Of a stretch of DNA of 64,000 nucleotides, positions 10,174 through 27,457 are shown piece by piece; the stretch's first letter is position 1; each line of letters begins with the position of its first letter. The notes below the pieces were generated by a model. That model saw nothing but the letters and a program-made list of their open reading frames with translations. It was not told the origin of the DNA and did no database searches. Position numbers and translations under genes: made by a program. Source of the stretch: an uncultured delta proteobacterium (GTDB lineage: Bacteria; Desulfobacterota; RBG-13-43-22); assembly GCA_963802945.1 (NCBI GenBank), contig CAWDKY010000030.1:241046-305045 (forward strand), written 5' to 3'.

Positions 10174-11375
10174 ATGCAAAGAGTACTTGAAGACATCAGA
10201 GTTCTGGATTTTGGGCGATTCATTTCATGCCCGTATTGCGGCATGATTCTGGCGGACATGGGTGCGGAAGTTATCCGGGTTGACCGGCCCGGAGGAGAAG
10301 AAGATCGTACCCACAGCCTTATAGGGCCGGACGGCAATAACCTGTCCTTTCCAAGTTACGCCCGGAATAAAAAGGGCATTACCTTGAACCTTTCGCAAAA
10401 TAAACCGGAGGCCCGGGAGATTTTAGATTCCCTGGTGAAGCAGTGTGATGTGGTGATTCACAATTTCACACCGGCCGCTGCCGAATCCATGGGTCTGGCC
10501 TACGACCGTCTGACTGCCGTTAAACCGGATATTATTTTAACGGCCATTTCCTGTTTTGGAAGCGAAGGCCCCTATCGAAATCGAACGGGATTTGATTTCA
10601 TCGCCCAGGCTATGTCCGGGGCCATGAATTGCGGAGGATTTCGCCGACAAACCGCCTGTCAGGGCCTTCTTTAATCCCATGGATTATGGAACAGCCCTGG
10701 CTGCCGCCGTCGGTACCCTTCTGGCCCTGCGCCACCGGGACAAAACAGGAGAAGGCCAGATGGTTGATCTTGGCCCTCTTAAGGACGGCCCTTTCTTTTA
10801 CGGCCCCGATCATTGCCGAAAAGGAAGTGCTGGGCCGGGACCGGCCTATGATCGCCAACCGCGCCCCTTATCTGACGACCACGGATTTATTTGAATGTCA
10901 GGACGGCTATGTGTTCATCGCCTCCATCATGAACAGCATCTGGAGACGCCTGGCTAAACTTATCGGTCATGAGGAACTCATCCCTGATCCGGAGCTATAT
11001 AATGACTTGAGCCGGTTTGAACATAGAGACAAAATCGATCCCCTGGTAGCGGACTGGATAAGGGTGCGCACCGTGGAGCAGGTGCTGACGGAAATGGAAG
11101 CCGCCCATATCCCCTGCAGCCCCTACTACGAACTGGGCCAGGTGTCGCAAGATCCCCATATTCAGGAAACCGGCATGCTGCCTTATATCGATATGGAAGT
11201 CCCGGGTTTGAAACCATTACCCGTCAGCCCCAATCCGATCAAGCTGTCCAAAACACCCGGCAGGATAGAAACCCGTGCGCCTCGCCCTGGAGAACACAAT
11301 TTGGAAATTTACGGCAGATTACTGGGCTACAGCAAAGAAACCCTGGACGAGTTGGTTGCCAAAGGGATCATCTGA
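10174..11375 (+). CDS. CoA-transferase family III (CaiB/BaiF), frameshifted at about 10640-10780
   Basis: LADMGAEVI, RNKKGITL, GFDFIAQAMSG, APRPGEHN spread over three frames. Confidence 0.85.
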
Positions 11376-12337: not shown

Positions 12338-12893
12338 ATGGATTTTGATTTAACCGTTATCCCTGCCGAGAGAATTGAGCAGGCCATTTTTCTGATTCGT
12401 GGACTTCGGGTTATGATTGACGCCGACCTAGCTATGCTTTATGGAGTGACAACGAAGGTCCTCAATCAGGCTGTCAAACGCAACAAGGATCGTTTTCGGG
12501 AGATTTCATGTTTCAACTGACTGCGGAAGAAAAAATGGAGGCGGTCACAAATTGTGACCACCTTTCCCGGCTTCGCTTTTCACCAGTCCTCCCTTATGCC
12601 TTTACCGAGCATGGCGTCCTTATGCTTGCCAATATTTTAAACTCGGACCGCGCTGCGCGGGTTAGTGTTCAATTGTCCGTACCTTGGTACGATTGCGAGA
12701 AACATTGTCCACCCATGCTGATCTGGCCAGAAAAATCACCGAGATGGAAAAGAAGTATGATGCTCAGTTCAAAGTGGTTTTTGACGCCTTGCGGGCCTTA
12801 ATGGCTCCGCCACTGAAAACGAAACGAAAGATCGGCTTTGATCTCAAGGAAAAACAGGCACGATACAGCACAAAGAAACCTTCGCGAAAATAG
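12338..12893 (+). pseudogene. ORF6N-domain DNA-binding protein, copy 1 (two frameshifts, possibly read errors)
   Basis: [21 protein letters not shown]...NQAVKRN / FQLTAEE..VTNCDHL..PYAFTEHG / [21 protein letters not shown]. Confidence 0.85.
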
Positions 12894-18805: not shown

Positions 18806-19354
18806 ATGGATTCTATAATCCCAGTAGAAGTGATTGGACGAAAAATTTTATTGATCCGCGGCCAAAAGGTGATGCTGGATGCCGATCTGGCAAAGCTTTA
18901 CGGGGTGACAACCAAGAGATTGAATGAACAAGTTAGGCGGAATCAGGGACGATTTCCTGAAGATTTTATGTTCCAATTGAGCTCTGATGAAAAAGCTGAG
19001 GTGGTCGCAATTTGCGACCACCTTGCCAAACTTAGATTTTCCCCTACTCTCCCCCATGCCTTCACTGAACATGGAGTTCTCATGGTTGCCAGTGTGCTTA
19101 ATACCACAAAAGCTATTGAAATTAGCGTCTTCGTTGTACGGGCTTTCGTTAAAATGCGGGAGATGGTTATCTCAAACAAAGAAATTGTCCGGCGGCTGGA
19201 TAATCTGGAAAAGAAATATGACAGCCAGTTCAAAGTGGTCTTTGATGCCCTGCGGGCATTGATGGCCCCGCCACTGAAAACGAAACGAAAGATCGGCTTC
19301 GACCTCAAAGAAAAACAGGCACGGTACGCCATAAAGAAATCTTCGCGAAAATAG
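18806..19354 (+). CDS. ORF6N-domain DNA-binding protein, copy 3
   Basis: [42 protein letters not shown]. Confidence 0.92.
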   Translation: MDSIIPVEVIGRKILLIRGQKVMLDADLAKLYGVTTKRLNEQVRRNQGRFPEDFMFQLSSDEKAEVVAICDHLAKLRFSPTLPHAFTEHGVLMVASVLNTTKAIEISVFVVRAFVKMREMVISNKEIVRRLDNLEKKYDSQFKVVFDALRALMAPPLKTKRKIGFDLKEKQARYAIKKSSRK

Positions 19355-19648: not shown

Positions 19649-19933
19649 ATGTTGATTTCGTACAAACCGCCATCTAACAAATTTGTAAAAAAACAGGCTA
19701 GGTCGTTTCAACTGGTAATCGAAGACGAGGTCGAAGCCGTCATTCAAAATCCGTTAGCCGGAGAGACCAAGAAGGGTGATTTGACCGGTTTCAGGATTCA
19801 TAAATTTTCTTTTCAGGGTCAAAAATTCCTCTTGTCTTATGTTATTCGAACCGAGGGAATCGTTTTTTTTACGATCGGCTCCCATGAAAATTTTTATCGG
19901 GAATTAAAAAAGTATTTAAAGGAGGTGGGTTAA
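19649..19933 (+). CDS. RelE/ParE-family toxin
   Basis: NPLAGETKKGDLTGFRIHKF...IGSHENFYRELK. Confidence 0.82.
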   Translation: MLISYKPPSNKFVKKQARSFQLVIEDEVEAVIQNPLAGETKKGDLTGFRIHKFSFQGQKFLLSYVIRTEGIVFFTIGSHENFYRELKKYLKEVG

Positions 19934-20242
19934 ATGATCACCGCCGAAAAAGTGTATAAAGAAATTTTGGATATGCAGGTCAAGGAGAGAGAAAAACTCT
20001 TCACCGTTATTGCCAGGAAGGGTTTTGAGAAAGATTCCTATTCCCACGAAGAGGTTTTCGGCGATATACGGGAATCTCCCTTTATACTCAGAGAAGCCGC
20101 CGAATATCTGGAAGTGGCCGAAATAACCCTGAGGCGATGGGTGCAATCCGGTCTCATTCCGTATGAAAAAGTTGGAAGGAATATCGTTTTCGATCCTGAT
20201 GAACTGAGGCGGGTTAAGAAATCAAAGACGAAAAAAAGATAA
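19934..20242 (+). CDS. Putative antitoxin with excisionase-like (HTH_17) domain
   Basis: Abuts the toxin stop codon; EAAEYLEVAEITLRRWVQSG. Confidence 0.75.
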   Translation: MITAEKVYKEILDMQVKEREKLFTVIARKGFEKDSYSHEEVFGDIRESPFILREAAEYLEVAEITLRRWVQSGLIPYEKVGRNIVFDPDELRRVKKSKTKKR

Positions 20243-20915: not shown

Positions 20916-20960
20916 TTGATTTGTGATCCTATTTTGAGTACAATAGAACCCATTATGAGT
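20916..20960 (+). promoter_or_regulatory. MNT-HEPN promoter with a direct-repeat operator candidate
   Basis: TTGATT-N17-TACAAT; imperfect repeat CCTATTTTGAGTAC / CCCATTATGAGTAC overlapping the -10 and the ATG. Confidence 0.55.
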
Positions 20961-21551
20961 ACGAAACAAATTCGCGATAATCTCTCCATGGCCCTTTTCG
21001 GCAAGACCAAACGAGCCTTGCTGGCCTTGTTTTTTTCCAACCCGGAGGAATCCTTTTACCTACGCCAGATTGCCAGGATAACCGCTGCCGGTCAGGGATC
21101 TGTTCAGCGAGAGTTAAAAAAATTAGCCGAGGCCGGCATCATCGAGCGTATTGAACAGGGCCGACAGGTCTATTTCAGAGCCAAAAGTAACTGTCCCATT
21201 TTCGATGAGCTAAAGGGGCTGATATTAAAAACCGCCGGATTGGTGGAGGTGCTTCGATCCGCTTTATCGCCGGTGTCCGATAAGATCGATCTGGCTTTCG
21301 TATTTGGTAGTCAAGCCCGAGGGAAAGCCAAGGCTGCCAGTGACATTGATTTATTAATTGTCGGGAATGTCGATGAGCTTGAACTACATCGGTTGATCAG
21401 CCAGACAGAGGGGCAACTGAACCGCTCCATCAATTACACCTTTTTGACCGCTCAAGAGTTTAAAAAACGCAAAAAAGAAAAGGGGGGGTTTCTCTCAAGA
21501 GTCCTGGCAGGGGAGAAGATTTTCATTATAGGAGACGGGCATGGATCTTGA
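20955..21551 (+). CDS. wHTH plus minimal nucleotidyltransferase (MNT) antitoxin
   Basis: VFGSQARG..SDIDLLIVG; N-terminal HTH. Confidence 0.88.
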   Translation: MSTKQIRDNLSMALFGKTKRALLALFFSNPEESFYLRQIARITAAGQGSVQRELKKLAEAGIIERIEQGRQVYFRAKSNCPIFDELKGLILKTAGLVEVLRSALSPVSDKIDLAFVFGSQARGKAKAASDIDLLIVGNVDELELHRLISQTEGQLNRSINYTFLTAQEFKKRKKEKGGFLSRVLAGEKIFIIGDGHGS

Positions 21552-21978
21552 GACACTCCTCAAAGAGGGACGAGTTCATCAGGAAAAAATATCGTCTCAA
21601 GAGATCCATAGGGCCTTGGCTAGAGCGGAAAGGGATTTAAAAACAGCGAGAAAAATAATGGCCGAGGACTGGGATTGGGGTTTCTCGATCACCTATAATG
21701 CCGTCCTCCAAGCTTCCCGGGCTTACATGTTTGCGCAGGGCTATCGCCCATCTCATGGAGAAGGTCATAAAAATACTTTCGCCATCATGAAAATCTTCAT
21801 GGGGAAAGAGTACGAGGACTTAATTTCCTATTTTGACCGCATGAGGAATAAACGAAATCAAGCTATTTATGATGTGGCCGGATTGATTACCGAAACGGAG
21901 GCCAGAAACCTATTTTCCAAAGCGACTGAATTTATAAAATTGATCCGCCGCAGTCTGACAGATAAAAATAGCGGCTAA
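21541..21978 (+). CDS. HEPN-domain protein (partner of MNT)
   Basis: Overlaps the MNT stop; YNAVLQASRA..GYRP..H..RNKRNQAIYD. Confidence 0.85.
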   Translation: MDLETLLKEGRVHQEKISSQEIHRALARAERDLKTARKIMAEDWDWGFSITYNAVLQASRAYMFAQGYRPSHGEGHKNTFAIMKIFMGKEYEDLISYFDRMRNKRNQAIYDVAGLITETEARNLFSKATEFIKLIRRSLTDKNSG

Positions 21979-22247: not shown

Positions 22248-22820
22248 ATGGAATCTTTAGTGCTCGTTGAGATTATCGAGAAAAAAATTTTATTGATCCG
22301 CGGCCAAAAGGTGATGCTGGATGCCGATCTGGCAAAGCTTTACGGGGTGACAACCAAGAGATTGAATGAACAAGTTAGGCGGAATCAGGGACGATTTCCT
22401 GAAGATTTTATGTTCCAATTGAGTCTGATGAAAAAGCTGAGGTGGTCGCAATTTGCGACCACCTTGCCAAACTTAGATTTTCCCCTACTCTCCCCCATGC
22501 CTTCACTGAACATGGAGTCTCTCATGGTTGCCAGTGTGCTTAATACCACAAAAGCTATTGAAATTAGCGTCTTCGTTGTACGGGCTTTCGTTAAAATGCG
22601 GGAGATGGTTGTGTCAAACAAAGAAATTGTCCGGCGGCTGGATAATCTGGAAAAGAAATATGATTCCCAGTTTAAAGTGGTCTTTGACGCCCTGCGGGCT
22701 TTAATGTCCCAGCCAATAAAGCCTAAGCGAAAAATTGGTTTTGACTTGAAAGAGAAGCAGGCCCGATACAGCATAAAGAAATCTTCGCGAAAGGAGGAGT
22801 TGTTGACTTTAACTAATTAA
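22248..22820 (+). CDS. ORF6N copy 5 (near-duplicate of copy 3 with compensating -1/+1 indels)
   Basis: DNA nearly identical to 18845-19250; indels near 22424 and 22519. Confidence 0.85.
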   Translation: MESLVLVEIIEKKILLIRGQKVMLDADLAKLYGVTTKRLNEQVRRNQGRFPEDFMFQLSLMKKLRWSQFATTLPNLDFPLLSPMPSLNMESLMVASVLNTTKAIEISVFVVRAFVKMREMVVSNKEIVRRLDNLEKKYDSQFKVVFDALRALMSQPIKPKRKIGFDLKEKQARYSIKKSSRKEELLTLTN

Positions 22821-25810: not shown

Positions 25811-26389
25811 ATGAGTCATGCCGATTTAGCCAAATATTTCAAAACAGAAAAGCAGCTCAAATTCAGCACCGATTTTTTTACCGATGCCGAAAACTATGAA
25901 GTTTGGGATGAAATTGATTTTTCCGATCTACAAGAAGTTGACGGTGAAAACACCTTTGAAATAAAGGCCGAAGACATCAAATTTTACGCCGAAGGAGGCC
26001 TTGACGACAACCCGCTGATGAATGACGAGGAATACGCCAAGAAATCATCCTACGGCGGGCTGGTGGCCCACCCGATTTTTATAACCTCCATCTGTTTTTG
26101 GTGTGTGGGCGTCAAGGGGAAGGGAAATTGGATCAGAACGCCCGGGGCGAGAAACCCTGGTCAGGTTTTGGAAATCTATGAATATTTCAAAGTCGGAGAA
26201 ACCATTCATGTAACAATGAAGCCCCATGACCGCTATATCAAACGGGGTAAATGTTATCTCCAGTATCAAATGAACGCCTTTAACCAGGATAATGTTTTGA
26301 AATGCAGAATGTTTGCCACCCTGATCCTGCCTCGGACACGCCAGGATATAGGGAAATTTCTTAAAGGCATCCGCGGTCTAAGTGATTAG
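25811..26389 (+). CDS. MaoC-like hotdog-fold dehydratase partner
   Basis: IKFYA..DDNPLMNDEEYAKKSSYGGLVAHP. Confidence 0.8.
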   Translation: MSHADLAKYFKTEKQLKFSTDFFTDAENYEVWDEIDFSDLQEVDGENTFEIKAEDIKFYAEGGLDDNPLMNDEEYAKKSSYGGLVAHPIFITSICFWCVGVKGKGNWIRTPGARNPGQVLEIYEYFKVGETIHVTMKPHDRYIKRGKCYLQYQMNAFNQDNVLKCRMFATLILPRTRQDIGKFLKGIRGLSD

Positions 26390-26402
26390 CCAAGAAACCG
26401 GA

Positions 26403-26463
26403 AGGATGGTCCTTGAAGCATCCTATAATACCCTATTTTTTGAAAAAGAAGATGAGGTTTTTT
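26403..26463 (+). repeat. Repeat A core with compensatory stem changes
   Basis: GGATG-GTCCTTGAAG-CATCC followed by a terminator-like hairpin. Confidence 0.8.
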
Positions 26464-26483
26464 AGTCACAATTGGATGATGAG

Positions 26484-26599
26484 ATTCCAATTTGGAATAC
26501 CAAAAACGAGCGATGAACCAGTCGCAATTTGCGACCGGTTCCAAAAATAAGATTAGCCTGGGAGTTTGAGTCTTTGAGATCACAAATTGTGATCTCAAA
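26484..26599. repeat. Three free ORF6N-type palindromes
   Basis: 26484-26498 (7-1-7), 26515-26541 (13-1-13, one mismatch), 26573-26599 (13-1-13). Confidence 0.9.
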
Positions 26600-26643
26600 A
26601 TTAAAAGGGGATTAGTTAAAGAAGTCATTTGAAGAGGATCTTG

Positions 26644-27210
26644 ATGGAAAAAAAGGAGTTAATCCCGCAGGAAATCATTGAGGGCAAAATCTTCCTTATC
26701 AGAGGTAAAAAGGTCATGCTCGATCGGGATCTGGCTGTTCTTTATGGAGTTGAGACAAAGGTCATAAACCAGGCGGTCAAAAGAAATTCTCAAAGGTTTC
26801 CAGAGGATTTTATGTTCCAGTTGTCCACTGAGGAGACTCAGCAATTTTTAAGGTCACAATTTGTGACCTTAAAAAGAGGACAGCATTACAAATACTTACC
26901 TTATGTTTTTACAGAGAATGGTGTGGCCATGCTCTCCAGTGTCCTTAATACCGAGAGGGCAATCCAGGTCAATATTCAAATCATGCGAACCTTTACCCGG
27001 TTAAGGGAGATCATCGCCACTCATAAAGATTTGGCGCGGCGTCTGGATGACCTGGAGAAAAAGTACGATAGCCAGTTCAAAGTGGTCTTTGACGCCCTGC
27101 GGGCTTTAATGGCCCCTCCTGTTAAGCCAAAACGAAAAATAGGTTTTGATCTCAAGGAGAAACGGGCACGGTATTCCATAAAAGGTGTTCAACGGGAGAA
27201 AAGGAAGTAA
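26644..27210 (+). CDS. ORF6N-domain DNA-binding protein, copy 6
   Basis: [52 protein letters not shown]. Confidence 0.92.
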
Positions 27211-27267: not shown

Positions 27268-27457
27268 TTGACTTTAATTTTTAATAGGTTTAAATAAGTT
27301 ATATTAACTTGGCTTCATAAAGATAAAGCGAATAGCCAACCGTTGATCGCCGAACGACGAACTACGAACGACAAACGTTTTTAGTACCGAAAGGCCGATC
27401 CATGAAGCAACCTACCAAGACCCCATTTTTTGAAAAAGAAGATGGGGTTTTTGTTTT
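27268..27457 (+). repeat. Repeat A, type-A leader plus terminator
   Basis: Conserved ends; short ACGAACT/ACGAACG middle. Confidence 0.9.

Follow-up and report, generated by a model that had tools for sequence, protein, structure and literature searches.

Solo copies of an ORF6N in-gene palindrome stacked upstream of an ORF6N gene and at the borders of ORF6N genes in other bacteria

Described palindrome and cassette systems

Short, near-perfect intergenic palindromes that often lie between convergent genes, form small stacks of variable number and flank one gene family are known from the REP/BIME elements and the RAYT genes, and the free (solo) palindromes described here, which lie beside ORF6N genes, resemble them in all of these respects. 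REP/BIME elements, however, number tens to hundreds per genome, whereas we counted 17 sites in the 4.37 Mb of the present genome, all of them at ORF6N loci or their remnants. Likewise, the 5.4-Mb genome of F. ginsenosidimutans contained six core sites, four of them at its ORF6N locus, which is below the copy number of REP elements. RAYT is a Y1 transposase, whereas ORF6N has no recognisable nuclease domain and carries one copy of the palindrome within its own codons.

A palindrome in coding sequence with further copies near the gene start is also known from the operators lac O2 in lacZ and gal OI in galE. Unlike these operators, the solos are putative sites; one in three follows a stop codon, and their copy number is unstable between orthologous loci. 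In the pilS/pilE system of Neisseria and the vls system of Borrelia, promoter-less partial copies of the variable part likewise lie beside an expressed copy, but those cassettes have a greater length, occur in large numbers and lie between conserved blocks that the expression site shares, whereas the locus described here contains three unframed scraps of 33-60 nt, which are partly decayed. Finally, quasipalindrome template-switch mutation, which is described for single sites, corrects imperfect palindromes to perfect ones during replication. In this way arm complementarity would persist even if it were not selected, and short patches could be copied from one hairpin-prone site to another, but the process is not described as a source of stacks at gene borders.

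The stack upstream of copy 6

We analyzed a 64,000-nt stretch of DNA (the window) from an uncultured delta proteobacterium, in which three palindromes were placed between a copy of a dispersed repeat, repeat A, and the start codon (ATG 26644) of an intact ORF6N gene, copy 6 (Table 1). Sequence inspection and a repeat search agreed on the three palindromes, and translation gave the peptides that the first-pass annotation had read from them, MMRFQFGIP from 26476, MNQSQFATGS from 26513 and EFESLRSQIVISK from 26562. All three palindromes were of odd length and had the common centre CAA-W-TTG. Palindromes 2 and 3 fell into the class defined by this centre and by arms paired at 11 or more of 13 positions; palindrome 1 matched the class in its inner 7 nt only, and 6 of its 10 outer positions were paired.

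Table 1. Features of the copy-6 locus, in window coordinates
Feature	Position	Strand	Description and basis
Repeat A, upstream copy	26395-26465	+	Dispersed terminator-like hairpin repeat, stem weakened in this copy; repeat search
Piece 1	26480-26512	+	Scrap of 'LKFQFGISKTSGRGGRRY'-type ORF6N gene, holds palindrome 1, outer left arm lost; congener matches
Palindrome 1	26484-26498, centre 26491	+	ATTCCAA-T-TTGGAAT; perfect arms of 7 nt
Piece 2	26513-26547	+	Scrap of 'ELVTICDRFQK'-type ORF6N gene, holds palindrome 2; C27 gene match and congener matches
Palindrome 2	26515-26541, centre 26528	+	GAACCAGTCGCAA-T-TTGCGACCGGTTC; 12/13 pairs
Piece 3	about 26552-26612	+	About 20 codons of 'EEFESLRSQIVISKGKGG'-type ORF6N gene, holds palindrome 3; congener matches
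Palindrome 3	26573-26599, centre 26586	+	TTTGAGATCACAA-A-TTGTGATCTCAAA; 13/13 pairs
5' leader of copy 6	26618-26643	+	Common to the genes in G211:C6 and G207:C164; 84-87%
Copy 6	26644-27210	+	Intact ORF6N gene, 188 aa; PF10543 and PDC-S05 profiles
In-gene palindrome of copy 6	26845-26875, centre 26860	+	15-nt arms; encodes residues 68-78 (11 protein letters not shown)
Repeat A, downstream copy	27417-27451	+	Terminator-like; repeat search and terminator scan

The genome contained 693 CAA-W-TTG cores, and since only 17 of them reached at least 8 of 10 outer pairs, the palindrome stack is beyond chance. Ten of these 17 well-paired cores were located within ORF6N genes and seven were free, palindromes 2 and 3 being two of the free ones. 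A consensus scan found a sigma-70 match (TTGAGA-16-CAAAAT) inside palindrome 3, which carries no weight because shuffled sequences averaged 2.0 such matches.

Copy 6 matched PF10543 with 120.1 bits (cut-off 27.8; E 5e-35) over profile positions 2-86 of 86, and it matched the PADLOC candidate PDC-S05 over residues 1-165 (E 1.2e-61). One PDC-S05 representative is reported in a preprint to lower the plating of T7 and T5 about 1000-fold (10.1101/2024.09.26.614923). The preprint describes the protective representative as having a RhuM domain (10.1101/2024.09.26.614923), and because of that description it is not the copy-6 protein. Six ORF6N copies, all oriented alike and including broken ones, were present in the window, and the genome contained eleven profile matches. 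The ORF6N copies alternated with a ParE-like toxin and its HTH partner and with a nucleotidyltransferase (NTase)/HEPN pair (19649-20242 and 20916-21978). Broken copy 1 (12383-12636) had a TGA in one frame and its domain went on in another, and its palindrome at 12551 still had 12 of 13 pairs. Elsewhere in the window, a family III CoA-transferase was spread over two overlapping frames (10174-10674 and 10629-11375; profile positions 1-153 and 185-366), and this split gene (10174-11375) is either a frameshifted gene or an assembly error.

Repeat A was an approximately 70-nt hairpin repeat with a T run, of which the + strand of the window carries all seven copies found there; many more occur in congeners. 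The other window copies lie at about 18753, 19521, 20346, 22194 and 24986, and in four of these other copies an ORF6N ATG followed 20-35 nt further on. Since this is the distance between repeat A and the ORF6N start elsewhere in the window, the stack amounts to ~150 extra bases. The annotation had called the upstream copy a terminator; a repeat-A copy is indeed present before the stack, but its stem at 26431-26464 is weakened, and of the two copies the terminator scan picked up the downstream one alone. Repeat A may be a REP-like element or a promoter- or terminator-carrying element tied to ORF6N units. Upstream of the locus, a MaoC-like gene pair (25811-26400) was 92-95% conserved in three congeners (L042-L044), and right after the MaoC-like stop codon each of the three differed, marking a synteny break point. 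Because all three MaoC-sharing congeners diverge after that gene, their comparison yielded no insertion borders for the ORF6N locus.

Matches in congeners delimited three separate scraps and thereby bore out the earlier proposal that the palindromes stem from the variable segments of other ORF6N paralogue types whose genes are otherwise lost. The pieces are 33-60 nt long, have the same orientation as copy 6 and each derive from a different ORF6N paralogue type. Six other genomes contained a counterpart of piece 1, matching over 33 nt at 88-91%; in G209:C1 this stretch is the head of a 5'-truncated ORF6N fragment (KFQFGISKTSGRGGRRY; 26 protein letters not shown), and in G211:C6 it aligned with a homologous solo whose core is mutated. 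Piece 2 matched 23 nt of a gene on contig C27 of the same genome at 96%, the C27 gene using another frame across the palindrome. Piece 3 was identical over 39 of 39 nt to G138:C129:4064-4102, which falls within the ORF6N domain of a 99-codon frame, and the identity then ended abruptly; piece 3 also aligned with a 5'-truncated gene in G213:C179. Pieces 1 and 3 kept flanking codons of their parent types, and piece 2 matches the type of the C27 gene. Among congeners, the types to which pieces 1 and 3 belong were seen mainly in broken genes, and no intact gene holding any of the three pieces was found in the genome itself. The best own-genome matches were 17 nt for piece 1, the 23 nt mentioned above for piece 2 and at most 14 perfect nt for piece 3, in agreement with the annotation's statement that none of the peptides is identical to an intact copy. 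We also considered palindromes 1 and 2 as one frameshifted gene piece, with MRFQF as the FMFQL motif; this was rejected, since the G209 fragment makes piece 1 a variable segment of its own.

Three tandem ORF6N genes could have decayed in place, with the palindromes spared by chance. Such decay would account for the shared orientation of the pieces and of the six window copies, some of them broken, and for the abundance of ORF6N fragments in the genus. However, it would need at least four independent deletions of ~500 nt, each ending within about 25 nt of a palindrome, and it predicts palindromes at least ~265 nt from the neighbouring gene, whereas they were seen at 11-150 nt. The abrupt end of the 39-nt identity of piece 3 to a congener gene also speaks against it, as do the compact stacks of a genome that has only one ORF6N gene, which are absent from the orthologous locus of a relative. 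We regard decay in place as highly improbable.

The in-gene palindrome and solo copies at gene borders

We surveyed 165 distinct ORF6N domain stretches, those of the present genome included, for the in-gene palindrome (at least 11 of 13 arm pairs). It was present in 125 of them and perfect in 74. In 116 of the 125, the palindrome was read in the frame that encodes R-S-Q-[FI]-V-T, and in the other nine it was read in another frame. Among the arm mismatches, G.T (20), A.C (19) and other combinations (24) showed no sense-strand wobble bias. Random synonymous recoding of 99 genes, which had been preselected as palindrome carriers, left a mean of 5.4 pairs and gave 11 or more pairs in 0.14% of 19,800 trials. 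As judged from these sequence counts, the in-gene palindrome is a DNA-level feature of ORF6N genes. In an AlphaFold model of copy 6 (73-row alignment; mean pLDDT 81), the palindrome-encoded residues 68-78 were placed at the end of a helix running into a loop, residues 70-86 had no secondary structure and residues 71-80 had a mean pLDDT of 52. The predicted loop fits a permissive spot in the protein.

Two in-frame palindromes 39 nt apart (RSQFVTLAGETNLKSQIVTSS) were observed in a 313-codon ORF6N gene of the same genome (C53:86873-87163; palindromes at 87044 and 87083), and similar in-frame doublets were present at L127, L130 and L146 and in metagenome contigs. Window copies 5 (22248-22820) and 3 (18806-19354) have the N-terminus and the palindrome in common; in copy 5, about 35 codons around the palindrome are in a shifted frame (RWSQFATT versus VAICDH), after which the gene is back in frame. 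At the sequence level, this pair shows a route by which the two reading frames of the palindrome could arise. We found no description of the in-gene palindrome in the literature. A PDB sequence search with the ORF6N protein gave coiled-coil noise only (E 0.07-0.09), and a Foldseek search against the PDB gave no match at E ≤0.001, the best being Ski/Dachshund-homology and MarR-type winged-helix proteins at E ≥0.26. In a phage collection, relatives were found in 5 of 50,697 records, all of them unannotated faecal 'Bacteriophage sp.' contigs.

For the census of solos, we used 109 loci from other genomes, comprising 29 of the same phylum and, from a wide range of phyla, the best 80 of 597 confirmed loci. 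These loci, which are biased towards relatives of copy 6, comprised 352,780 nt outside ORF6N matches with 102 cores; palindromes with other centres, for example CCAT-N-TTGG (copy 4, L014), were left out of the count. Solos with at least 8 of 10 outer pairs numbered 31, against 0.1 expected from random arm pairing, and cores with 6-7 outer pairs numbered 9, against 2.5 expected; few cores had intermediate scores. Twelve of the 31 solos were located within 150 nt upstream of an ORF6N start (17,594 nt; 0.68 per kb), ten within 200 nt after the stop codon (22,458 nt; 0.45 per kb), one in an N-terminal extension and eight elsewhere (280,315 nt; 0.029 per kb). The density was thus ~20-fold higher within 150-200 nt of an ORF6N gene than further off. 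New here are the clustering of free copies along the borders of ORF6N genes, their counts and their turnover in congeners, together with the loop position of the encoded peptide and a dispersed gene-less repeat described below.

One or more solos were present in 23 of the 109 loci, and two or more in seven (L014, L029, L099, L126, L143, L165 and L166), three of which are not independent because they are orthologous Flavobacterium loci. Stacks therefore recur at ORF6N genes in other taxa, a test that had been proposed for this locus. Solos beside a gene were often unlike that gene's own in-gene palindrome. Flanking codons were retained at L029, L036 and L108, and the palindromes at L126, L109, L165 and L166 were bare, with no gene-like flanks. 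The 3' solos at the three loci checked (L109, L165 and L166) lay between convergent genes. Perfect outer arms (10/10 pairs) were seen in 10 of 31 solos versus 62 of 107 in-gene cores scoring at least 8. A half-site scan found 7-mers at chance level (61 half-only matches) and spotted additional solos with a mutated centre at L013, L015, L040, L118, L142 and L154. We also observed a type II palindrome (GAACYGGTCRCAA arms) that recurs as a solo at distances of 11-116 nt before type I genes, in which the in-gene palindrome is of the AAGGTCRCAA type (L119:1022, L137:2643, L143:233, L094:2546 and window position 26528; the distant groups Omnitrophota, Prevotella and the present genus). At L143, the type II palindrome is in frame, in an N-terminal extension.

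Comparison of related loci revealed turnover of the solos. In the present genome (G000), copy 6 is preceded by palindromes 1, 2 and 3 between repeat A and the gene. The region upstream of the gene in G211:C6 contained solo 1 with a mutated core and a different second solo, likewise mutated, and the corresponding region in G207:C164 contained only the right half of a second solo of the G211:C6 type. A perfect copy of that second solo was present on contig C12 of the present genome, and palindrome 2 was absent from the homologous upstream regions of both G211 and G207. Four syntenic orthologous Flavobacterium loci had 0, 1, 2 and 4 units directly after the stop codon, with the next gene convergent at both loci checked (L165 and L166), and the differences between orthologous solos were paired, compensating changes. 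The complete genome of F. ginsenosidimutans has one ORF6N gene, with 3-4 differing solos at that locus; its two core sites away from the locus were chance-like matches in unrelated coding sequence. These comparisons of sequence show repeated emergence of solos beside ORF6N genes, followed by their loss.

The solos might be working cis-sites, such as auxiliary operators or decoys, in which case ORF6N dimers would bind the palindrome, each gene would have one site within its coding sequence, and additional border sites would tune or cross-wire the expression of paralogues, for example by looping or as a roadblock. The enrichment at gene borders and the 12 of 31 solos within 150 nt upstream of a start are consistent with such sites, as are the many solos that are perfect without gene flanks and the compensating changes between orthologous solos. 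Within the genes, the palindrome is kept at the DNA level, as its occurrence in different reading frames (9 of 125 genes) and the recoding result (0.14%) show, and the near-equal G.T and A.C mismatches fit double-stranded DNA over mRNA. The complete Flavobacterium genome, too, has the core pattern at its ORF6N locus only, besides the two chance-like matches, and the modelled N-terminal domain bears a weak resemblance to winged-helix-type DNA binders, with no significant match. However, 10 of 31 solos follow stop codons, three checked loci have them between convergent genes, homologous solos decay in congeners, orthologous loci hold anywhere from none to four copies, and solos often differ from the palindrome of the neighbouring gene. 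We consider cis-sites of this kind the main rival explanation, possible though on the unlikely side. It is also rather unlikely, in our judgement, that the ORF6N (PDC-S05) candidate defence family uses the palindrome as its working DNA site. Each gene would then encode its own site within a permissive loop, and the border copies, the present stack of three foreign types among them, would be live sites for the sensing or regulation of paralogues or for the exchange of small defence cassettes. If this were true, gene and site would together form a self-referential module that is conserved among bacterial phyla and has no published description.

The solos could instead function at the RNA level, as hairpins of the 5' leader or of the 3' tail, with effects on mRNA stability, termination or insulation. 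Folded as RNA, the stack forms three hairpins (-46.1 kcal/mol; z -2.7), and 2 of 200 shuffles folded equally well; T runs follow some 3' solos (L165), and positions at both the 5' and 3' borders would suit insulators. Against this role, the in-gene mismatches have no G.U-type bias and most 3' solos have no T run. No terminator-like site (G+C-rich hairpin followed by a T run) was flagged in 26466-26643, the scan reporting 26828-26841 and 27417-27451 only, and a search of the stack against Rfam 15 gave nothing at threshold, with rivX as the sole match (15.2 bits versus a gathering score of 100; E 0.34). A role as RNA hairpins thus appears quite improbable.

Recombination signs and the origin of the stack

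Signs of recombination were found around the palindrome. Copy 6 is a mosaic, in which the first 90 nt and columns 390-420 were nearest to G211:C6 or G138:C8, and columns 120-300, which include the palindrome at about 216, were nearest to G210:C10; this mosaic is suggestive only, because the compared genes are 72-77% identical overall. The genus is rich in broken ORF6N genes and fragments. A dispersed repeat of ~280 nt in the present genome consists of a left arm, a 70-nt central ORF6N remnant with the palindrome, and a right arm. Its four gene-less copies (C14:31367, C14:129564, C15:516627 and C19:about 1400-1655) have one and the same junction, and at C27:60016-60919 the same arms surround an intact ORF6N gene that lies ~25 nt before a degenerate solo. 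From its structure, the ~280-nt repeat looks like a non-autonomous derivative of the gene-bearing unit. In G209:C1:48259-49400 (L054), a higB-higA pair lies between a decayed 5' ORF6N fragment and a 3' fragment, whose palindromes are of different types, and the solo at C12:21611 of the present genome lies directly behind a HigA-like gene.

These arrangements raise the question of whether the palindromes are att-like crossover sites, at which small cargo such as toxin-antitoxin pairs would be exchanged between ORF6N units, leaving solos as remnants of half-completed events. The palindromes have inverted arms and a 7-bp centre that is asymmetric at the middle base only, a layout that resembles recombinase core sites. 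The higBA pair between two palindrome-bearing fragments, the solo behind the HigA-like gene and the alternation of the window ORF6N copies with ParE-like/HTH and NTase/HEPN pairs are in line with such an exchange, and what separates the gene-less from the gene-bearing repeats is a clean indel of the size of a gene, located ~25 nt from a solo. However, the breakpoints lie 10-30 nt outside the palindromes, and site-specific exchange would yield full-length chimeras rather than scraps of 33-60 nt. None of the genome's four tyrosine recombinase genes (PF00589) was located at the ORF6N loci on C30, C53, C12 and C27, the four lying on C29, C17 (two) and C15; the search covered tyrosine recombinases. 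Crossover sites of this type are improbable.

The first-pass annotation had proposed, as one of two options, a silent-cassette library. On this reading, programmed gene conversion would overwrite the variable segment of copy 6, with the pieces as donors. The pieces are indeed promoter-less partial copies of exactly the variable segment beside an expressed copy, and the copy-6 mosaic suggests that ORF6N centres do swap between paralogues. The proposal is nevertheless not supported, given the size, number and state of the pieces: there are only three, of 33-60 nt, one of them decayed, and beyond the 7-nt core no homology blocks, such as a donor would require, are common to the pieces and copy 6 on either side. 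Homologous stacks are decaying in two congeners, and stacks also occur downstream of genes and, in one case, in a genome with a single ORF6N gene. We consider a cassette library extremely unlikely. In public sequencing runs, the share of the sampled words present was 21% at most, and contigs from these runs covered mainly the palindromes, which are conserved across organisms. The alternative proposal, a collection of operator sites kept from earlier paralogues as a spacer-like record, stood in so far as the pieces are relics of paralogues; ordered accretion was not seen, and a role as operators is weakened by the solos that follow stop codons, which are about as numerous as those before starts.

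Our best explanation, which is tentative and to which we assign a probability of roughly 45%, is that the stack consists of recombination scars left by palindrome-centred short-patch recombination in a fast-changing gene family. The stack would then be three solo copies of the palindrome that ORF6N genes carry in the codons of a predicted permissive loop. The congener matches and locus comparisons establish that the pieces came from ORF6N genes, that solos recur and that they turn over; from these we infer the copying step, in which the hairpin-prone palindrome would be the starting point of short-patch copying or gene conversion. Centres of ORF6N genes would be exchanged between paralogues in the same manner, and patches left at a gene border would subsequently decay, in keeping with a fast turnover of the gene family. 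Because such scars retain the family palindrome, they may still be recognised, or fold, as the in-gene element does; the stack could therefore, speculatively, affect the expression of copy 6.

Recombination scars fit the data better than promoter operators because 10 of 31 solos lie after stops and the solos at three checked loci lie between convergent genes. However, many solos of other phyla are perfect and have no trace of gene flanks (the bare palindromes listed above), and the border enrichment, the scarcity of intermediate scores, the compensating changes and the recurrent type II solos would also fit a selected working site. Moreover, paralogue donors cannot account for every stack, because F. 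ginsenosidimutans has a single ORF6N gene and differing solos.

ORF6N genes are abundant and multi-copy, and they match a candidate anti-phage family, PDC-S05, of which a relative is reported to protect E. coli from phages (10.1101/2024.09.26.614923). For annotation, short 'ORF6N-like' peptides read from intergenic DNA are to be taken as scars rather than genes. A palindrome embedded in codons across phyla, together with copies at gene borders, points to either an undescribed cis-element or a recombination hot spot that drives the shuffling of the family, and either answer would explain ORF6N genes as markers of variable islands.
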